From assembly GCA_039545335.1 (NCBI GenBank), contig BCIN01000003.1, positions 2,551,060 through 2,615,059 of the forward strand: a DNA stretch of 64,000 nt. Direction: 5' to 3'. Numbering within the stretch: the stretch's first letter is position 1; each line of letters opens with the position of its first letter. The DNA comes from Kondoa subrosea (taxonomy: Eukaryota). Of the stretch, positions 723-64,000 are shown in pieces. A program made the translations under genes and the position numbers. Below the pieces are notes generated by a model. It saw nothing but the letters and a program-made list of their open reading frames with translations, was not told the DNA's origin and made no database searches.

Positions 723-1578
723 TCAGTGACCTTCCGGTATCTCTTCTTCTTCAGTTATCAAAGCCCATGTTGGTGCTGGCAACTTTTCCCGACCTTTGAG
801 GAAACCGATTTCGATTACGAACAGATTTTCTATCACGTGCGCTCCACTTTGTTCTACTAATTGAGCAGCTGCAAATGCGCTTCCCCCGGTCTGCGCGAAG
901 TCAGACAGGTAGAGAAAAAATCAGAAGAACGCACTGCTATCAGATCGTCCACAATCAGGACATTCTGGCCTGCTTGTAATGCGCCGTTCTGCATTTCAAA
1001 TGTGTCCTGTAGGTCACAGAATCCTCAGAAACTCTCTACCGGAGAAGCCTGAGACTTCAGCCTACGGTTCCGTATTCCTTCACATAAGTAGCCTGCATAA
1101 CTGATCCAGGTAATTTACCCTGTTTCCTAACTGGCGCGAAGCCTGCACCCAATCTTAGCGCTATCAGAGGACCTAGTAAGAAACCTCTAGCATCTAATCC
1201 GACTACCATATCGATTTTCTTTCCTTCCAATCTTGGAAGAGTGGAAGTGAAGATATGGGTTAAGAAGGAATTGATGAGCGCTTCCGTCGCTATCGGATCA
1301 CGGAAGATCCTGTGAAAACACTTGTGTGATGAACGATTGCTCTTGTGAATGATAAGGTGAAATTGCAGTAAACTCACGGAAAGATGTCTGTGAATGTTAC
1401 ACCTTGCTTTGGAAAGTTTTCACTGACAGTATTTCAGTCAGCAGAGTGCAGACAGGTAAGTAGAGACTGAAGACACTTACTAATGTTGCAAATGTTTGGC
1501 TAGAAGATCTTTCACCTGAGCGGGTACAGGCTCATTCGGTACCAGAGTGGCTTTGGCGTGCTGTTCTATTGCGTCCAT
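723..1578 (-). CDS. APT1: Adenine phosphoribosyltransferase (spliced)
   Basis: [57 protein letters not shown]-binding motif; stop TGA at 725-723. Confidence 0.95.
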
Positions 1579-1665: not shown

Positions 1666-3558
1666 ATGCAAGTGACTCTCAAAAGACTTCAATCTATCGT
1701 GTGTAGACCATTTCAGAGCCATAGCTGTGCATCTGATTCAATGCTTGGGGGAACAGTCCTCTCACATGTCTGCAAACAAATTACCGGACGTGTTCATCAT
1801 TGGTGCAGCGCGCACGCCTATAGGCAGTTTCAATGGAGGTCTCAAAGCAGTCAAAGCACCTCAATTAGGTATCGCAGCAGTCAAAGCGGCCTTAACTCAA
1901 GCAAATGTCAAACCAGAGCAAGTTGAGGAAATGTACTTGGGTAACGTTTTACAAGCTGGTGTTGGTCAATCCCCTGCTAGACAAGTAGTCCTTGGTGTTG
2001 GTTGCCCGGAATCAACTGAAGCTACTACTATTAACAAGGTTCGTGCGGAGCGAAATTCAGAGTTGTAGACTCTGACTTCTGCATTTGTGCGAACAGGTTT
2101 GCGCATCAGGCATGAAGGTAAGACAAGACAGAAGACAGTGTCATCGAAGCATCTCTCTGATGATTTGCATAGGCTATTATGTTGGCAGCACAAAACTTGC
2201 AAACTGGTCAGCGCGAATTAATGGTAGCAGGAGGCATGGAAAGCATGTCAAACACTCCGTGAGCACATTCTCTGAAGTATGGGGTCTTACTTATGCTCGA
2301 AGATCAGTTATTACTTCGTGAGTTTGCTTCAAAAGTAATACTCCAGAAATAGCTAAGCTTTCATCCGAAACAGCCTCGAAATGCTGGCTATGGCAATCAG
2401 ACAGCTCACGATGGTGTCTTGTACGATGCTCTGTTCGATGTGAGCATCCTCGCGTTCTCATACGCGAAACCTGCTCATGCTGTGTTCAGCCATATGGCAA
2501 ATTCCCTATGGGCAACTGGTCAGCAAGTCAAAAAGGCTTCAGTTTAATGCTGATGCTGGTTTGCGACTTGGTGACAGCGCTGAAGAAACTGCTCGCAAGC
2601 ATTCGATTGACCGAAGCGCTCAAGATGACTACGCGATCGAATCTTACCGTCGAGCAGCAGAAGCTTGGAAATCCGGAGCTTACAAAGCTGAAATCGCTCC
2701 CGTCACCATAAAAGATCCTCGAAAGGGAGATGTGGAGTTTGCTGAAGATGAAGAATACAAAAACATTAAAGTTGACAAAGTGAGAAGTTTGAGACCGGTC
2801 TTCCAGAAAGAGAATGGAACGGTCACTGCTGCTAATGCGTCTTCGATCAATGATGGTGCTAGTGCTGTAGTGGTAGCTACACAAGCTAAGATTGATGAAC
2901 TGGGTCTGAAACCAATGGCAAGAATCCTTTGTGAGGGCAGTGAATATGTATTTGTTACCTACTAATACATCTTTATCTGGTACTTACAGCCTTCGCCGAT
3001 GCTGCTTGCGCACCGATAGATTTGTAGGCATTGTATCTCAACATTCAATCTTCTACGCTCATCTTAACTTTCTAGCCCTATCGCACCATCAGTAGCCATT
3101 CCTATCGCCATGAAGAAAGCTGGTGTGACCGACGAGCAAGTCGCTCTGTACGAAATCAATGAAGCTTTCTCTGCTGTCGCTATCGCAAACATGAAACTGC
3201 TTAACCTAGATCCAAAGAAAGTCAATGTTGTGCGCACCATTCTCTATTCGTCTTAATGGTCGGAGCTGATGAGAAAGGATTTATTCAGTTGGGAGGATCA
3301 GTCGCCCTTGGACACCCTGTTGGAAGTTCAGGTTGCCGTATTGTCGTAACGTAAGCTAACAATCCTTACAACCGCGTTGGAATGTAGAGTACTGATCGAT
3401 AATGTAGTCTTTGCCATCAATTGAAGAAAGGCGAAATTGGTGTAGCTGGTGTTTGCAACGGAGGTGAGATTCTGCTTTCATATCTTCTATGGAACAGATA
3501 ATGATCATCCTGTGATCTAGGCGGAGGTGCTTCTGCTATGGTTATTGAAAAGCTTTAA
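1666..3558 (+). CDS. ERG10: Acetyl-CoA C-acetyltransferase (acetoacetyl-CoA thiolase); downstream ATG at 1766, putative upstream PTS2 exon from 1666
   Basis: ARTPIGSF, TINKVCASGMK (catalytic Cys), TAANASSINDGA, EINEAF, GHPVGSSGCRI, GVCNGGGGASA; many short introns. Confidence 0.95.
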
Positions 3559-6700: not shown

Positions 6701-8540
6701 AGGATCGTTGAATCGGCTTTCAAAACAACAGCCAGATGCTCTGAGACCTCACGACGAAGCTCTTGCGCGATTCACCACAAATCTACTTTCAACCGCTACA
6801 ACAGAAGACGAAAGCGTATGTCTATCTACAGTATGTATTGTCAAGTGTACTGATCTATTATTTCAGGATGAGAGTGACCCTGACTGGCTGGAGGATGCCG
6901 AAGAGGACGATCAAGTGAAGGCCATGGTAGCTGGCTTGAAGCTTATGACCAATCGATGTCTCGCGCAAGCCGATCATGCGGATAGCAGGACCTTCATCAA
7001 GAGTTTCTTCGCTCAACTATGGGCAATTCTTCGGCACGAAAACACGTCGGCGCACAAAGCATCGGCAAATTCTCGCCTGCGACTGCAAGCTGCTAGCTCT
7101 GTACTAAAACTTGGTGGAAATTCTGCTTTAGAGATCCAGGCGCTGAGCAGATTGGAGATCTTGGTGTGGACTGTGCAGGTAGGTGATCCCTGACTAGTCC
7201 TGCCACTATTGATTCTGAGCAGGATCCTTCCTATGCTGTTCGAAATCGCTTCATCAGAAAACTTTCGAAATACCTGATATACAGAAAACTCAACGACCCG
7301 CGTTTTGGTCTCGCTCTCTACCTTGTTGCACATGATCCAGAGGCTGATAACATCGATCTGGTATGTTTGCCCTACTATTGAAAGTGTCATTGGCGCATTC
7401 ATTTTTGCAGGCTAGAGCGAATATTCTTGGTCGACTGAACAAAGCCAGCCCAGGTAAGCCCTTAACCTTCCACTATCTCACGGCTCTGACACATCAAGCA
7501 GAAGTCCGCCTCCGCGAGTTCGAGATCCCCTTCTTGCGGTTGCTAAGTCTATTGGCACACCACCCAGACACTTCTCGAGAAACCGAGGACGTGCTGATCT
7601 CAATGAAGTGAGGCTTTTGCAATCATATTTCTTGGTCTGACATTGGCTGCAGATACATCCGGCTGTACTTGGACTGCGTCGCTCGCAAAGAGAACATCGA
7701 ACTGTTACACCATCTTTGTCTGAAATTGCGGACGGTTCGCGATAGTACTTCACAAGGGCATAGTGAGGTGAGGAGTGTTTTGACGTTGTAAAACGCTATC
7801 TGATTGTTTTGGGGACAGAATTTGTACACCTTGGCAGAACTATCGCAGCATATCATTTCCAATCTGGCGGCAGTCAGAGCCTGGCCCTTGAGCTCATACC
7901 CCGGTCGCGTCAAAATGCCTTCCGATATCTTCAAGGCGTTGCCATCCAAGGATGTGCAGAATGATGTGTGTGGGAATAAGTGCTCACACCGTGACTGAAC
8001 TTTCAAATCTAGGTTGCAAAGAAGACTTGGTTGTCGGCAGAGACGATGGAAGCTGTCAATTCGGCGCTCAAGACCAAAGGCGATGTTAGTGGCAAGACAT
8101 CGAAACCGAAAAAACCTGCTGCACCTAGAAAGCGAAAGTCTTCATCCAAAGCGTAAATCGTTTTGTTCCGAACCTTCACGTTTCTCGTACTGAAACGCTT
8201 CAATAGGCAAAACGGAACCAAGAAGAGACCTCGCACATCTGCCTCTAAGAGAAAAAAGAAAGACTGGGAAGGCTCAGATGAAGATCTGGTTTTGGCCTCA
8301 GACGAAGAGCTTGATGACGACGAGGAGGAAGAGAATGAAGAGGTAGGAGAAGATGAAGATCCGAAATCTAAAAAGGCAAAGAAGCTATCTGCGAGACCTA
8401 AGGCTAAGCCAACCAAGTACAGCAAAATGGATGTGGACGACAAGCCAGTTCGTAGATCTTCGAGAGCAAAGCCGAAGAAGGCAGCAGAAGTAGAGCAGGA
8501 CGAAAGTGAACTATCAGAACTTGAACCAGGCAGTTCATAG
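3781..8540 (+). CDS. PDS5: Sister chromatid cohesion protein Pds5 (HEAT repeats, Lys/acidic C-terminal tail)
   Basis: ACCLADLLKIYAPEAPY, LLNVIPQLEEELK, LTDPDDKVRAAAC, LSLLAHHPD, SYPGRVKMPSDIF. Confidence 0.92.
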
Positions 8541-18707: not shown

Positions 18708-19517
18708 CTACCAGAAGCAGTCTTCTGGCTGAACGATCTTGTCTCTTCCTCCATTCGCTATACTTGCCTTTTGCGTGTCTCTCGAGCAGCATATCCGCAT
18801 ATCTAGATTCATGTATCAACCCTAGTTGGCAATCGCTTTCTGTTGAAGCTCACCATAAGCATCTTCTTCACCAGCTTTCACTCCACCAGCATAATAACCG
18901 TTGACCGTCCGATAAACGCAATAGCCCATAGATTCATACATAGCAATAGCGACTGTATTACATATATGAGTACATTGTTCAAAGAGTGTAAAAGCAGCTT
19001 ACGATTATTAGATACTCTCACAAACAAGTCCACGAAATAAGCTCTCTGCAGATCGGACACCTTTTCTAGTAGATGCATGAGTGATTTAGCCAATCCTAGT
19101 CGTCGGTAATCAGGAGCCACTGTGATTGCTGTAACGTGACCGCTAAGCAATCAATGAGTATAACTGTGCGTCACTTGTTTCCTCGCAATTGGACTGACTG
19201 CCAGTCCTTCTTCTCGCCTTCTGTCTTGCCCATAACTTTCTCAATATCATAAGCTTGATCACGAAAGAAGAATCGAGATTGATTCAGCTTACCGTAGCCC
19301 ATCAAAGTCCCATCTGGCGTTTCTTGCACTGAGAAGAGATCAGGCCAAGCTGACATGTTGGCCAAATAGTAAGACACAGCATACTACAGGACAATGATCA
19401 GAGCAAAGTCTAGGACAGGTAATACGAGCGATGACACACTGTTTCCGTCCATGCATCCAAATTTATATTGTTGAATTTGAAGAGGTCATTCGCGTTCATA
19501 GGGCGTAGCAAGCTCAT
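18708..19517 (-). CDS. NAT3: NatB N-terminal acetyltransferase catalytic subunit (NAA20)
   Basis: DLFKFNNINLDAWTET, GHVTAITVAPDYRRLGLA, FVDLFVRVSN, EDAYDMR. Confidence 0.95.
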
Positions 19518-57511: not shown

Positions 57512-59315
57512 TTAGCCTCTTCTAGTCCTAGATGATCTTCCGTTTAATGATGCTTGTAGATCCCTTGCCATCTGTTCATCGGCCGATAAAGTCTTGACTC
57601 CTTTCCCGTTCGACATTGCAGTGGAAGCATTTGAAAGAGACCTAGCCATTGATGATGATTCCAATTGTACTGGCATGACCATCCCTTCCACCGCGGGCTG
57701 GCCATCGAAATGCAATTCCACATCATGTGAAGGTCTGAAAAGATCATCATTATCCATCAAATCGGCTTCGATGCCATCTTCTCCCATTGTACCAGCAAGA
57801 TTATTCGTTGTAGCATCTTCACCGAAGACATCCACCACAACTTCTTGCTGTTCATCCATCAACCTTTTTTCCGCTTCCGATGCAGGAACGATATCGAATT
57901 CGTCTTCCTTCTCCCAGTACTCTTCATTCTCTTCCAACTCCTCGAACCCAGGCGCATAAGCGGCCCAATGTTCCGTTGCTGGAGTTACCCAGGTATGAAT
58001 CATTCCTTGATCCGAAACGGTGACTACAACAGGTCGAGTAGGATGCCACTTGATCATACAAATTAGCATCACATATTGAACAAACACGAGGGGAAAAGGT
58101 ACATCACAATCTTCCATTGGATCTTTTGTACCTTCAAGAATCTTTGCTAATGCTCCAGTTGCAGAATTCCAGATATACACGCCATTAGAAGTATGCTGAG
58201 CCGTTCCTTATCATTTTACAGTCAATGGCGAGTACAGAAGTAGATTAGGAATGGACTTTACCTCCGCAAGCTATCACATATTCCCCATCTGCTGAGAAGT
58301 TGCATCTGTTCCAAGGTGTTCTATTGATCAAATCTTGAAACTTGTGATTCAAGATCAAAGTCCCATCTTCTGGATTGATAGATAATACTCTAATCATTCT
58401 ATCGTTTGAGTTGATAGCTACTGCTGAACCTGTCCTATCGAATTCCATACTCTTTATACTTGAATTAGGTGAAACTCTTTCATGGTGCACAAGCTACTTG
58501 TAAATCAGCAGTAGTACACTAGTGAAAAAGCGGGCACGAACAGTTTTTGAAGCGGTTTCAAAGATATATAGCGAGCCTAGAGAAGAGCCAACAAAGATGA
58601 GATCGCCATTTGGACTGAATCGACAAATAGTCGCCGTTTCTCTGCTTATACGTGAGCCAAAAATCAAAGCCAAAACTAAATGGGAAGGCAAACCTTTTTC
58701 GCCCACCTTTAACTCTTTCTTGCATTCCTTCCAGATCAATCTCCATAGCGAGCTCAAATCGAGCTCCACCAGGTCTGAGATCTACAAATATGGTCTCTGC
58801 TTGATTCTGCAATGTTGCAACTAGAACATTGCTAGAGACATATTCAGTAACAAAGAAAGAAAAACAGCAAAGTATAAGACTAACCTATTGTTCGGATGCA
58901 AGCTTGCACTAATTACAGGAGCATCGAAGCGTACAGTATGTCTTCGATCACCAGTCTTGAGATCCCAAACAATGACATTCCAATCTCTTGAAGCCGACAT
59001 CAAATATCTACCTTTTCTTGACCAACAAATGGAAGTGATAGCTCGAACATGACCTTCCAAGTATCTCACGACGTTCTTGCTTTCGAAATCAATGATGCTT
59101 ACTATCCCATCGTTTCTTCCTACAGCTAGATGATGACCTGCGTAGGTGCCGTAGGTGTTGAAACGTGCACAAAGAGCTGCTGCATCGATTGTTGACTCTA
59201 CCTAAGCGAAGACTTATCAGATTCTGTCCGCGAAAGAACTTCGCGCAATTTGTATATTTACACTGGATGGGATGTCTTGCGCGAACGGGTTCAGCAAGGA
59301 CGGTATGGAGGCCAT
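57512..59315 (-). CDS. SWD1: COMPASS/Set1C WD40 subunit Swd1 (RBBP5)
   Basis: SLLNPFAQDIP, LEGHVRAITSICWS, NSNDRMIR, HKFQDLINRTPW, WAAYAPGFEELEENEEYWEKEDEFD. Confidence 0.93.
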
Positions 59316-59407
59316 GAGGACATGCTAAGAAGCTGCAGGCGTGTAGGCAGTGGCTGTACGAGGTGAGCAGAGGCGAGTCACTCTTCTAAACACCACGAAG
59401 TCGAAAC

Positions 59408-61203
59408 ATGAGAACCTCACTTATATCCCTCGTATTATGCTTAAGCAGTGTCCTGGCGTTGCCAACACAGCAACAGATACCCTTGCAAGCGCAGAAATTG
59501 AGCCTCATCGATACTTTGTCATTACCAAATGCAGTCGAGGATCTAGCTCGCCTCCAAGAGCACATCTCGTCACTGCCTGAACAGCGTAGAATTCGATTGC
59601 AAGACTTCACAGAACATACAATTGTGAATACTTCGTATTCCCCTCCTATCCTTAGAACTGGGTTTCTTAGTGTGCTTGCGTATTTCTCGAATAGACTGAA
59701 GGAGAGAAGAGTGTATTGACTTACAATGGTCTACGTTTCGACGATATTACCGATGAACTACCTCTGCTCGAATTGGCTGCAATAGATAAAGCTGGCGCAG
59801 CTAATGATCTACCGAAGAACCTCTCGAAATCGGTTCATCAATTACAGAAGTACTTTGATTCGGTGGACATAGAACGCATGCGCAAGACATTAACCAAGTT
59901 GTCCGTCAAACTTTCGCTAGTAATCGTGTCTCTTATTGAGATTGTTTGGGAATATAGCTCATCCTTCTACACTCGCTACTACCGATCACCGACGGGAAAA
60001 CAATCTCAACAATGGTTACTATCACAAATCAAAGAGATCGCAGCTCATAAACCAGATCTCGGCATCAAAGTTTCTGAATTCCCTCATTCATGGTTCGTGT
60101 GATGTTCAGGTTTAGGTTCCTAGAATCCAACCTTAGGATCCATTCGAACAGGGGTCAGAATTCGATTATTGCACATTTCCCTCGTCATAAGGACGCAAAG
60201 GGTAAAGATAAGAGAGTCGTCATTGGAGCTCACCAAGACAGTACCAATCTTCTGCCTTTTCTTTCAGCACCCGGGGCAGAGTGAGTCGTTCTCATGTATT
60301 CTCAAGAGTTATTCTGACGAGTCTTTATGTACAGCGATGATGGGTTAGGCATTTCACAAATGTTTTCAGAACAAAAGAAGGCTAATTTGAAATGCACAGA
60401 TCTGGTACAACAACCGTTCTAGAAGTAATGCACGCCTTGGTAGAGAATAGCTTTGTTCCTTCAAATTCATCAGTAGAACTACACGTCAGTGAAAATCTTA
60501 CTTAATGCAAGACTGGCTTTTTGTTGAGATTGAATTCGTGTCAATAAAGTGGTACTCTGCTGAAGAAGGTGGATTGCTCGGATCTGCGCAGGTGGCGAAC
60601 AAATACCATGCAGACAAGATTCCAGTCAAAGCTGTACGGGTCTTTCTTCTGGCGTTTGAGCAGCGCTCTGCTCACGCTGAAGTACACCCTATAGATGCTG
60701 CAAATGGATATGACAGCATACGTCAAACCCGGCACCGAGAAGAGAGCTGGTATCATCAATGATTTCGTTTCACCCGAATTGACTTCTTTGGTACAAGAGA
60801 TGGTTACTGCTTACACAAATGTGGCTCCGGTCCAAACGAAATGTGGGTATGCCTGCGTGAGTGTTATTCGACCAGTTGAATGGGATATAGCTGATCTTGT
60901 GGTTTTCCAGAGTGATCACAGTAGCTGGACCAAGGTCAGACTTTTATTACGTCCACCTTGATTTATTTCCAATGCCTCTTGACTGATTCAGGTCGGAGTT
61001 CCGAGCGCTTTCATCATCGAGGCTACCTTTGAAGACTCCAACACTGGAAATATCCATTCATCGAGGGATACCATCAATGTTGACGGCTTTTCCTTTGAAC
61101 ACATGTGCGCCCTCCTTTGTCCATCAAGAGCATCTACTGATCTCCTGTACTTAGGTCACAATTCGCGAGAATGAGTATTGCGTTTGCCAACGAATTGTCA
61201 TAA
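59408..61203 (+). CDS. Secreted M28 leucine aminopeptidase (Lap1-like)
   Basis: Signal peptide; SSFYTRYYRS, IGAHQDS, APGADDDGSG, WYSAEEGGLLGS, MLQMDMTAY, CGYACSDHSSW, IHSSRD. Confidence 0.93.
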
Positions 61204-61338
61204 GATATATTTTGCTGTATGATTTCAACATCTGCATCGCTGTCATTATGTTACCTTGTACTAGTATCGCATTTATACATGAATTGCTTGGATTGTACAA
61301 ATTACCTTATTATTGACTACAACTCAGACCCCTTATGT

Positions 61339-64000
61339 TTACAAATTAAGTACAGTAACGTTCTTTTGCTCGAGGAGTAAGATCCTGTTCGTTTCCGTCC
61401 AACAAACTTGCACAATGGCTGTTGAGTTGCCTTTGTATTCAACAGCCGGCATGTTGGTTTTACGGATGTCCCAAACTTTCAAGCTCTTCTCGTCCCCCAA
61501 AGCAAAAGATTTGCCATCAGGTGAAAAGGTACCGTTGACGAAAGAGGACAAAGCTTTGTCTGATTCGTAACCAAAACTGAGATCTGATTTGATGCTAGCT
61601 GCTTTGCGAACATCGAAACCGCAAACTTGATCGAACTTTGCCATCAGTTCGCACAGAAGGAGGTTAGGATCGTAAGACCTATCAACGAGAGTCAGATAAT
61701 GTCAGTTTAAATAGCTGATTAGCCTTACCCAAAATGCAACGCATTTATGTTAGAGGTGACAAAGTAGGTTGGTTTCGCCGAGTTGATCATTCGTGGAGGT
61801 CCATCAAGTGATACATCATAGAGGCATATCTTCTTGTCTGCTCCACCAGAAGCCAACATTTTTCGATGCGGGCTGTAGGCCAGTGCAGTGATAACGCTCG
61901 AATGACAAGTAACAACCATTTCGGGTCTTTCGCATGTTACTGCGCTATCTTTGCCTTCCAAATTCCAATAAAAGAGGAATCTGTCACTAGTTCCACCCGT
62001 TACCACGCTGGTTCGACCAGGTACTTGATTTGGAAGAGCAAGGAGTGCAGAAATGCCGAAGAGTTTATCAGGCTTAGGAGAACTATGAGGTGTTCCAAGA
62101 CGAGGAGAATAAAGTGCCGAGTCCTGTAGCGGATATCAGTGACATTCTGGAGTAGTGATTGCCGACAACTTACCGTGCTGACTGGCAACAGTCCTAATTG
62201 CTGTGGCTTGTTCCCGGTAGTGGTTTTGTCAAGGTATGCCAGAGCGACGACTCCATGCTCCGGAAGAAAGCATGAGGTGGGAGACTCCTTTGGCGTGTTT
62301 CCAGTATCGTGCAAGCAAGTTTTCTCCTTAGTGTCCGCATTGAATGCTAAAACATCACCCCGCTTGGTAGTAATTAGATACTGAGCAGTATCAGGCACTT
62401 GATAGATGCGACGGGGAATGCTGCGAAGCTTGGCGCTGGCGCTTGTAGATGCAGAAATATCAATGGCGGCGGAAGTCGAAACGGAGAAATACTTTTTTGG
62501 TTGCGGAGGTGGAGCAACACTCTTCTTCTTCCCTAGCTTGATCGGTACAATTTCGTCTTCATCAGATGATAACGTTACAGACTGTGCAACTTGAGAAGTG
62601 CTCGCTACTGGTGCCGCAGCCCTTCGTATTATGGCTTGAGCTGCAGGCTGCTTCTTTACTACAGGTTGTCTGACCAGCACAGGCTTTGTAATCACTTTCG
62701 GCGGTGCTTGGGCTGATTCCTGTCTTGGCTCGTTGTCTGGCGAAACACGGACGCTTACCGTCGATTCGATCAATGGAGCCGATCTTGTTTGTTGCAATCT
62801 TCTGACACGCATTTCCTCCTCTTCTCTTTCGATCTCTTTGTTGAGATCAAGCGCTTCTCGAATCAAGGCTTGCCGTTCTTTCAGCTTCTCGATTTTAGCT
62901 GCTCTATCGGCCCAGTACTCTTCTTCCTCTGCGGTCAAAGTAGGTGGTACTACTACTAGTTGTTGAGCAGGGTCTTGATTTCCGAGCAATACCCTCGGCG
63001 GTTCTTCGATTTCTGAGACTTCTTCTTCATCAACTTCCATCCTGCTTGTTCCTCTATGTACACGAGACAAAGATCTTTGCTGGCCCTGAAACAGATCACC
63101 TGAATTCACTCTTGTTCGCTTGGATTCCCGTACAGATGATTGATGAGCTGGAGCTTCAACAGCAATAACATCATCTGACGAATTGTTCTCTTCGGAAGAA
63201 GACGCAGGCGATCGGGTCCGTTTCTGAGACTGAGAATGGGAAGTCATGATAGGAGCAGATGCTTGTTCAGCTTGTCTTGATGTTGATGCGATAGGCCGCG
63301 ATTGGGCAGATGTTACAGACGAAGAGTGAGGTTGATTCACCAAATGCACCGCATTTGAGGCAGCAGTTGAAGCAAGAGAAGGTTTGATAGTAGCTTGCCG
63401 ACTTTGGACCGATTGATTTGATTGAGCAGAAGTAAGGCTTGTATCTTGAAGTTGGCAACTTTGCGTAACATTGCTTTGCATAGCACGAGTAGGTAGAGTA
63501 TTTGTTGCCGCATCTCTCGGAGCAGAGGACGTTGGAGCGAAAGAATGAACAGGTCGATTAGAATCGGTATGACTCTGGCTGGCATGCATATTTGCAATCA
63601 CTGTCTGGAATGCAGTCTTCTGAGGCGATGTTGCTTGCAATTGATGTTGTGATGGAGGAGCAGGAGAAGGCAGAACTGCTGCGATTTGTCTTTCCAGACT
63701 CGTCAAGCCAGGAATAGGTTGATCTTGCATTGCGACAGCGGGGAGAGGTTGTACAGGAGCAGCGAGTGACTGAGTAAGCTCAGGAAGCTCAGGGAAAGAC
63801 TGTTCTTCCGCTTCGACAACAAGCGTAGACGGTCTTGGAGTGAATTTGCGGACATTGAGCTGATCGTTCAAGATTGCGAACTCGAGACCAGCAGTCACTC
63901 TAGCGATATCATTCAGCTTGTACACCCTGACTCTGATCTCGTGCTCACCTCCTAGTATCCTCAAGCAACCTCAACACAAATGTCCGGGTGAAGGACCGGT
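61339..64000 (-). CDS. WD40-repeat protein with long S/Q/P-rich N-terminal region (5' end beyond or near window edge)
   Basis: LVTGGTSDRFLFYWN, HSSVITALAYSP...LASGGADKKICLYD, FSPDGKSFALGDEKSLKVWD. Confidence 0.75.

Follow-up and report, generated by a model that had tools for sequence, protein, structure and literature searches.

A candidate spliced N-terminal extension resembling a type 2 peroxisomal targeting signal at the ERG10-type thiolase gene of Kondoa subrosea

Whether a single acetoacetyl-CoA thiolase gene can supply both the cytosol and an organelle is the question raised by a locus in Kondoa subrosea. The locus lies in a stretch of 64,000 nucleotides (nt) of contig BCIN01000003.1 (assembly GCA_039545335.1, positions 2,551,060 to 2,615,059 of the forward strand), referred to here as the window, and positions are counted from its first letter. 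Upstream of the start codon of an ERG10/ACAT-type thiolase gene, ATG 1766, stands a further ATG at 1666, and excision of a candidate 58-nt intron between the two would join them in one reading frame. The joined product carries near its start a nonapeptide similar to a type 2 peroxisomal targeting signal (PTS2). A first-pass annotation, made from the letters of the window, had proposed dual targeting of the enzyme to peroxisomes and cytosol. The spliced two-start layout on which that proposal was built is supported by a survey of homologues and by a chance test, while the identity of the peptide as a PTS2 is plausible rather than established.

The candidate 5′ mini-exon has a coding part at 1666-1698 (+), made up of the ATG at 1666-1668 and ten further codons (CAA GTG ACT CTC AAA AGA CTT CAA TCT ATC), which read M-Q-V-T-L-K-R-L-Q-S-I. 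It is followed by the candidate intron at 1699-1756 (+), with a GTGTGT donor at 1699-1704, a CTGAT motif at 1733-1737 whose branch A stands 20 nt before the acceptor, and a GAACAG acceptor ending at 1756. Nine bases then lead to ATG 1766 (TCC TCT CAC, 1757-1765, +); they would encode S-S-H in the long form and belong to the 5′ untranslated region (UTR) in the short form. Removal of the 58 nt brings ATG 1666 in frame with ATG 1766 and adds 14 residues, the first 15 residues of the product ending in S-S-H-M. The spliced long form carries the nonapeptide R-L-Q-S-I-S-S-H-M, to which the nine bases contribute positions 6-8, the histidine included. Without removal of the intron, ATG 1666 is the start of an overlapping, out-of-frame upstream open reading frame (ORF) of 86 codons at 1666-1926 (+), which appears in the ORF list. 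The first-pass annotation had described this anatomy correctly: the ATG, the 11-residue peptide, the donor at 1699, the CTGAT near 1733 and the acceptor at 1756 were all read at those positions, spliced translation reproduced the in-frame join that yields RLQSISSHM, and the upstream ORF arises on intron retention as it had stated.

No other upstream ATG could be joined in frame to ATG 1766 through an intron of realistic size. Three GT..AG pairs leave the frame open between ATG 1666 and ATG 1766, and only the 58-nt pair has the size of an intron in this window. The 85-nt pair at 1672-1756 was rejected because it lacks G at +5 and would excise the motif, and the 22-nt pair at 1703-1724 because it is too short. 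Initiation at a non-AUG codon in the main frame would yield no targeting-like peptide; that frame is open only from 1676, with a GTG at 1727.

The thiolase gene was modelled by tblastn of a homologous protein, P0003, against the window (homologues are cited below by such numbers). Its coding sequence runs from 1766 to 3558 (+) in 12 exons: 1766-2038, 2097-2117, 2173-2258, 2308-2317, 2374-2439, 2490-2518, 2578-2930, 2990-3023, 3076-3229, 3289-3350, 3408-3463 and 3521-3558. Two of these are micro-exons (2097-2117, 21 nt, and 2308-2317, 10 nt), both needed for an in-frame alignment with P0003. The spliced translation is free of stops and predicts a short form of 393 residues and a long form of 407. 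Pfam Thiolase_N matched two of the exon ORFs, the best PDB matches were all acetyl-CoA acetyltransferases (best E 2.1e-25), and the segments V-C-A-S-G-M-K and C-N-G-G-G aligned with P0003. Identity amounts to 86% with P0004 (393 residues compared), 82% with P0003 and 77% with P0005, and the protein clusters with fungal ACATs in a tree. By these comparisons the gene is an ERG10/ACAT (type II) thiolase with the thiolase fold, acetyl-CoA acetyltransferases being its nearest relatives.

The 11 introns of the gene, supported by homology, measure 49-60 nt, and the candidate intron falls inside this range, in agreement with the earlier description of its length as typical. It has G at +5, as do all 11 other introns, and shares both its length and its last six bases, GAACAG, with the intron at 2039-2096. 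A branch motif reading CTGAT or CTGAC is present in six of these 11 introns. The donor hexamers of the gene are loose (GTTCGT, GTAAGA, GTGAGC, GTGAGT, GTCAGC, GTGAGG, GTAGGC, GTGCGC, GTAAGC, GTGAGA). An ab initio intron census of the window gave 396 candidates, most of them false. In this noisy scan, GTGTGT-donor candidates joining open frames appeared at 7966-8012 (+) and 19384-19439 (-), both without homology verification, and GTNTGN donors bordered long ORFs at several sites. The first-pass annotation had ascribed GTGTGT donors to PDS5; the candidate at 7966-8012 does lie downstream of the PDS5 Pfam hits, and to that unverified extent the statement stands.

Chance was assessed with 5000 dinucleotide shuffles of 1579-1765, and 3450 further segments of 187 nt were taken from the window. 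In 197 of the shuffles and 150 of the segments, an intron-like pair joined an upstream ATG in frame and without a stop. Intron-like GT..AG pairs have a density of 1.6-3.1 per kb on each strand of the window. A PTS2-like product was obtained from none of the 5000 shuffles and from one of the 3450 segments, which we assumed, without checking, to be the real locus. Since no shuffle gave a spliceable extension of PTS2-like form, the configuration is not a product of chance, even allowing for the many genes scanned in the first pass. When the R-L-x6-M frame was held fixed and its residues were drawn from the pooled composition of the extensions, the relaxed PTS2 motif was met in about 1% of draws.

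Homologues were collected with exon 1 as the query, which gave 843 matches among 1041 candidates, and the best 120 were used. The two top-scoring proteins, P0001 (700 residues) and P0002 (1126 residues), both labelled “metaclust”, bear duplicated thiolase segments, are probably artefacts of assembly or prediction, and were excluded from all counts. The survey of N-termini comprised 95 rows (P0003-P0074, P0121-P0142 and the window), in 91 of which the motif of the first strand was located. Residues preceding an internal Met that matches the short-form start were present in 54 of these 91 rows. Extensions of at least 11 residues were found in 47 rows (46 homologues and the window long form), 44 of them devoid of acidic residues. 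Near-identical proteins exist as long and short forms (for example P0073/P0074 and P0022/P0024), and in several lineages long forms stand on transcript-like contigs (among them P0066, P0073 and P0141, the last with 22 member sequences). A basic-R-[L/I] motif shortly before the internal Met recurs across subphyla. It takes the form R-R-I-x-x-M in rust-type sequences and Mixia, R-R-L-A-H-I-R-M in Microbotryomycetes and R-[L/I]-x6-M in all Ustilaginomycotina sequences seen, the last with spacing identical to that of the window and not fitting PTS2.

The window gene shares this layout. Its internal Met at 1766 corresponds to the initial Met of P0003, P0004 and P0005, and after splicing its upstream start would be in frame with that Met, with a targeting-like peptide between the two. 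That the mini-exon encodes the basic-R-[L/I] motif we read as homology, and this is the strongest argument for a real exon. A genuine alternative N-terminal exon at the window thiolase is, on the sequence comparisons made here, likely. The layout also suggests that in Basidiomycota one ERG10/ACAT gene may serve both organelle and cytosol, as against the two genes described for ascomycetes (PMC7082573). A literature search did not turn up a description of such a one-gene arrangement across Basidiomycota. Two Melampsora models disagree at this end of the protein (P0055 and P0139): M. americana has an extension of 41 residues, and M. larici-populina begins at the internal Met. The M. americana extension opens with R-L-Q-S-I, as in the window, and continues into a low-complexity stretch that is perhaps an unrecognised intron.

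The phylogenetic position of the gene was estimated from a quick LG+G4 tree of 84 rows with lengths of 370-460 residues, 11 rows being excluded, P0058 and P0012 among them. The window protein, P0003, P0004 and P0005 formed one clade with a support of 99 in the SH-like approximate likelihood ratio test (SH-aLRT), which adjoined Microbotryomycetes within the Pucciniomycotina-type sequences. The 21-row Pucciniomycotina-type set had an SH-aLRT of 95 and also included a long-branched Ascobolus row. Among the best 120 of the 843 matches, the best named match was Mixia osmundae, with 66-69% identity. A scan of metagenomes with exon 1 kept 80 loci, all at most 62% identical, with no close relative among them.

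How well the peptide agrees with a PTS2 depends on the definition. The consensus [RK]-[LVI]-x5-[HQ]-[LAF] (PMC7710942, where Kunze 2011 is cited) is matched at R, L and H, and the first-pass annotation was right in placing these three; it had passed over the fact that Met, the ninth residue, lies outside the published consensus. The strict motif therefore fails by one conservative residue. A large hydrophobic residue at position 5 and one of [LSGA] at position 6 have further been prescribed (Petriv 2004, cited in PMC4585086), and the window has Ile and Ser there, so that the constrained positions 1, 2, 5, 6 and 8 of the two published patterns all agree. The sequence RIx5HM has been reported in an oomycete peroxisomal thiolase, where it was considered likely functional but was not tested (PMC7710942). 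The nonapeptide occupies residues 7-15 of the long form, inside the first 40 residues as a PTS2 requires. It is identical at six of nine residues to the signal of yeast Pot1 printed in PMC12173945, and the Pot1 N-terminus quoted in the first pass agreed with Pot1 residues 2-15 in that source.

PTS2-type matches were also sought in the homologues. Among 53 distinct N-termini, three matched the broad and five the relaxed pattern (the window counted), against 0.06 and 0.11 in composition-matched shuffles. This is an enrichment of about fifty-fold, and none of 2000 shuffles reached the observed count. The matches fall in separate clades: P0066, P0058, P0068 (Ascobolus), P0012 and the window. The motifs of P0066 and P0058 are fully canonical, and that of P0068 also fits. 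A type 1 signal (PTS1, [SAC][KRH][LM]) was found in none of 87 homologue C-termini, so an N-terminal signal would be the sole route to the peroxisome. For the window thiolase itself a PTS1 route was rejected, its C-terminal E-K-L not fitting the pattern. A WD40 gene of the window at 58824-62135 (-) was considered as the PTS2 receptor Pex7 and rejected, its best natural solved matches being SWD1/RBBP5-like (COMPASS).

These observations would be accounted for if the thiolase gene gave rise to two proteins. The bulk product, from ATG 1766, would be the cytosolic enzyme of the mevalonate pathway. A minor product would come from transcripts that start upstream of 1666, in which removal of the intron at 1699-1756, presumably by splicing, brings ATG 1666 in frame and adds the 14 residues. 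The extension would be this lineage's shortened version of the organelle-targeting N-terminus found on ERG10-type enzymes across Basidiomycota. In it, R-L-Q-S-I-S-S-H-M would act as an amphipathic, PTS2-like nonapeptide, with the internal start Met as its last residue. Given such a nonapeptide, the long form would most likely be bound by Pex7, which the organism presumably possesses, and imported into peroxisomes.

The geometry of the locus limits how such a transcript could arise. A divergent gene for adenine phosphoribosyltransferase (APRT) lies at 857-1578 (-), its start codon placed at 1578-1576 by inspection. Yeast APRT 1g2p matches the ORF piece 1057-1377 (-) at E 1.6e-20, its residues 29-109 corresponding to residues 20-104 of the piece, and the APRT ORF has a weak Pribosyltran Pfam match. 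In this head-to-head pair the APRT start codon is separated by 87 nt from ATG 1666 and by 187 nt from ATG 1766. The leaders or promoters of the two genes must nearly touch or overlap. At the thiolase side, both ATGs have C at -3; the spliced leader contains no further ATG between them, and in the unspliced leader another ATG, at 1741, stands in the frame of the upstream ORF. With C at -3 in both contexts and no intervening ATG in the spliced leader, leaky scanning could yield both forms from one messenger RNA. An unspliced long transcript would probably translate the thiolase poorly.

Several findings weigh against a long form imported by Pex7. The 87-nt gap implies that the transcription start site (TSS) of the long form lies within those 87 nt or overlaps APRT, although a placement this tight is possible in a compact genome. 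At +4 the candidate donor has a T, a base absent from that position in the 11 other donors of the gene. The closest relatives, P0003, P0004 and P0005, start at the Met equivalent to ATG 1766 and are known as short forms only. Their contigs, some 1300 nt long and bearing unbroken ORFs, are taken as transcripts. The evidence they give against a long form is weak, since each relative is represented by a single small cluster whose UTRs together come to no more than about 120 nt. As for the signal, the Met at position 9 departs from the consensus, and no experiments on Met at that position were found in the literature examined. PTS2 proteins have been described with an unstructured linker before the fold and with acidic residues upstream (PMC4585086). 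In the window the motif is separated from the first strand by only 6-7 residues, residue 4 of exon 1 onward aligning with residue 3 of solved cytosolic acetyl-CoA acetyltransferases, and the six residues upstream of the nonapeptide contain neither Asp nor Glu. The nearest lineages that bear extensions (Microbotryomycetes, rusts and Mixia) do not fit PTS2, and fungal ERG10/ACAT extensions in general mostly look like mitochondrial presequences. With these points set against the agreement in motif and the enrichment among homologues, a PTS2 identity of the window extension is plausible, and a peroxisomal isoform is possible but somewhat doubtful.

The last of these points leads to a different destination for the same spliced product. 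The extension may be a short mitochondrial presequence, with a mitochondrial long form active in ketone, isoleucine or short-chain beta-oxidation metabolism and a cytosolic short form, the same division as may be supposed for most basidiomycete orthologues. The 44 acid-free extensions, that of the window among them, are basic and end at the internal Met. The window shares their basic-R-[L/I] motif, and its R-[L/I]-x6-M spacing is that of the Ustilaginomycotina sequences, which are not PTS2. The first acidic residue of the long form is at position 22, with two basic residues and one His among the 14 added. Mitochondrial import proceeds in the unfolded state and requires no linker (PMC4585086), ACAT is an established mitochondrial enzyme in fungi (A. 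fumigatus Erg10A and M. oryzae ACAT1; PMC7082573), and a weak first AUG, a presequence and an in-frame second AUG are common in Cryptococcus and Neurospora (PMC7049704). Of the extensions compared, that of the window is nevertheless the weakest as a signal of this kind, with 14 residues of which two are basic. Its maximum hydrophobic moment of 0.48 was reached by 32% of shuffles, and ten extended homologues ranged from 0.48 to 0.83. Inspection by eye showed no clear processing motif of the R-2, R-3 or R-10 type, and the His essential to a PTS2 is kept at position 8; it was by replacement of this His that the PTS2 of rat thiolase was made into a mitochondrial signal (Osumi 1992, cited in PMC4585086). 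We regard a mitochondrial long form as rather unlikely, and the peroxisomal reading as somewhat likelier than the mitochondrial one. A signal read by both organelles, sending the long form to either or both according to conditions, would draw on the shared helix and charge features of PTS2s and presequences, which single substitutions can interconvert (PMC4585086). In P0066 and P0058 a canonical PTS2 does occur together with a basic tail of presequence-like character ahead of the internal Met. Nothing in the window speaks specifically for such an ambiguous signal, both signals being individually weak here, and we consider it very unlikely.

It may also be that ATG 1666 plays no part in making a longer thiolase. 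Transcription might start downstream of it, or it might serve only a repressive overlapping upstream ORF, the in-frame splice being a relic or a coincidence. The short products of all three closest relatives, the non-consensus base at +4 of the donor and the cramped space beside APRT for a promoter and TSS would all be expected in that case. Intron-like GT..AG pairs are frequent in the window, as counted above, and upstream ORFs are common in fungal leaders (PMC7049704). None of the 5000 shuffles, however, combined an ATG with an intact intron, a join in frame and without a stop, a basic-R-L motif and PTS2-like spacing, and a neutral relic would not be expected to retain all these features. 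An out-of-frame ORF of 86 codons over the start of an essential enzyme would moreover be costly if transcribed. Taken together these considerations make an unused ATG 1666 a fairly improbable explanation.

If the long form is indeed peroxisomal, its origin may lie in the mitochondrial-type extensions of the family. The fungal ERG10/ACAT extension could be an old mitochondrial presequence that was independently retuned into a Pex7 signal in the window lineage, in P0066, in P0058 and in Ascobolus, a proposal that we put forward tentatively and consider doubtful. The change in the window would then have been a truncation together with two substitutions in the R-L-x6-M frame, which is still non-PTS2 in smut fungi. 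Were this so, it would be the natural reverse of the laboratory His substitution that turned a thiolase PTS2 into a mitochondrial signal, and a peroxisomal acetoacetyl-CoA thiolase would have been derived repeatedly in fungi from the gene that feeds sterol synthesis. The survey suggests a drift of one and the same short N-terminal segment between the mitochondrial and the peroxisomal kind of signal, and the surveyed extensions form a natural sequence set for studying how the two signal types evolve into each other. If the long form exists and enters peroxisomes, one ERG10 gene would serve cytosolic sterol and isoprenoid synthesis as well as peroxisomal acetoacetyl-CoA metabolism, with the choice of compartment set at the TSS, at splicing or at the start codon. 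The thiolase would then lengthen the short list of cryptic PTS2 signals described from fungal 5′ regions, and standard ORF or gene calls would overlook a targeting isoform. In a literature search judged by titles and the openings of abstracts, no description of a basidiomycete ERG10-type thiolase bearing a PTS2 was found, and PMC11842775 mentioned neither thiolase nor acetoacetyl.

PTS2 signals on degradative thiolases are classic. Like yeast Pot1, the window enzyme would carry an N-terminal nonapeptide on a protein of the thiolase fold, with R-L-Q-S-I and the His at position 8 in common. It differs from Pot1 in being a type II (ERG10/ACAT) enzyme and not a degradative type I thiolase, in having Met rather than Leu at position 9, and in its linker of about 6-7 residues in place of a long unstructured one; its signal would also be optional and dependent on splicing. 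Closer in arrangement are the cryptic 5′ PTS2 signals of 6-phosphogluconate dehydrogenase, reached by non-AUG initiation in U. maydis Pgd1 and by alternative splicing in C. albicans GND1 (PMC7214817, where Strijbis 2012 is cited). There, and perhaps in the window too, a cytosolic housekeeping enzyme gains a PTS2 from sequence before the main AUG, so that cytosol and peroxisome are supplied by a single gene; the Candida gene uses a spliced short 5′ exon. The enzyme is a different one, the internal start Met would double as position 9 of the motif in the window, and the window case is known from sequence alone. PTS2s in short first exons with alternative splicing have been noted in algae and Arabidopsis as well (PMC7710942).

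Among two-start genes, those of Cryptococcus and Neurospora (PMC7049704) resemble the window thiolase in having in-frame upstream and downstream AUGs with a short targeting peptide between them, so that leaky scanning is possible. Unlike the window gene, these cases are predicted to be mitochondrial and need no splice. Ascomycetes have separate genes for mitochondrial and cytosolic ACAT, Erg10A and Erg10B in A. fumigatus and ACAT1 and ACAT2 in M. oryzae (PMC7082573). The same enzyme family is needed there in two compartments, and the organellar copy has an N-terminal signal, whereas the window and many basidiomycete homologues seem to encode both forms in one gene. With the basidiomycete ERG10 orthologues P0141, P0009, P0022 and P0066, finally, the window shares an acid-free extension with a basic-R-[L/I] motif that ends at the internal short-form Met. 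It is set apart from these orthologues by an extension that spans a candidate intron, is among the shortest and belongs to the only 5 of 53 N-termini that fit the relaxed PTS2 pattern.

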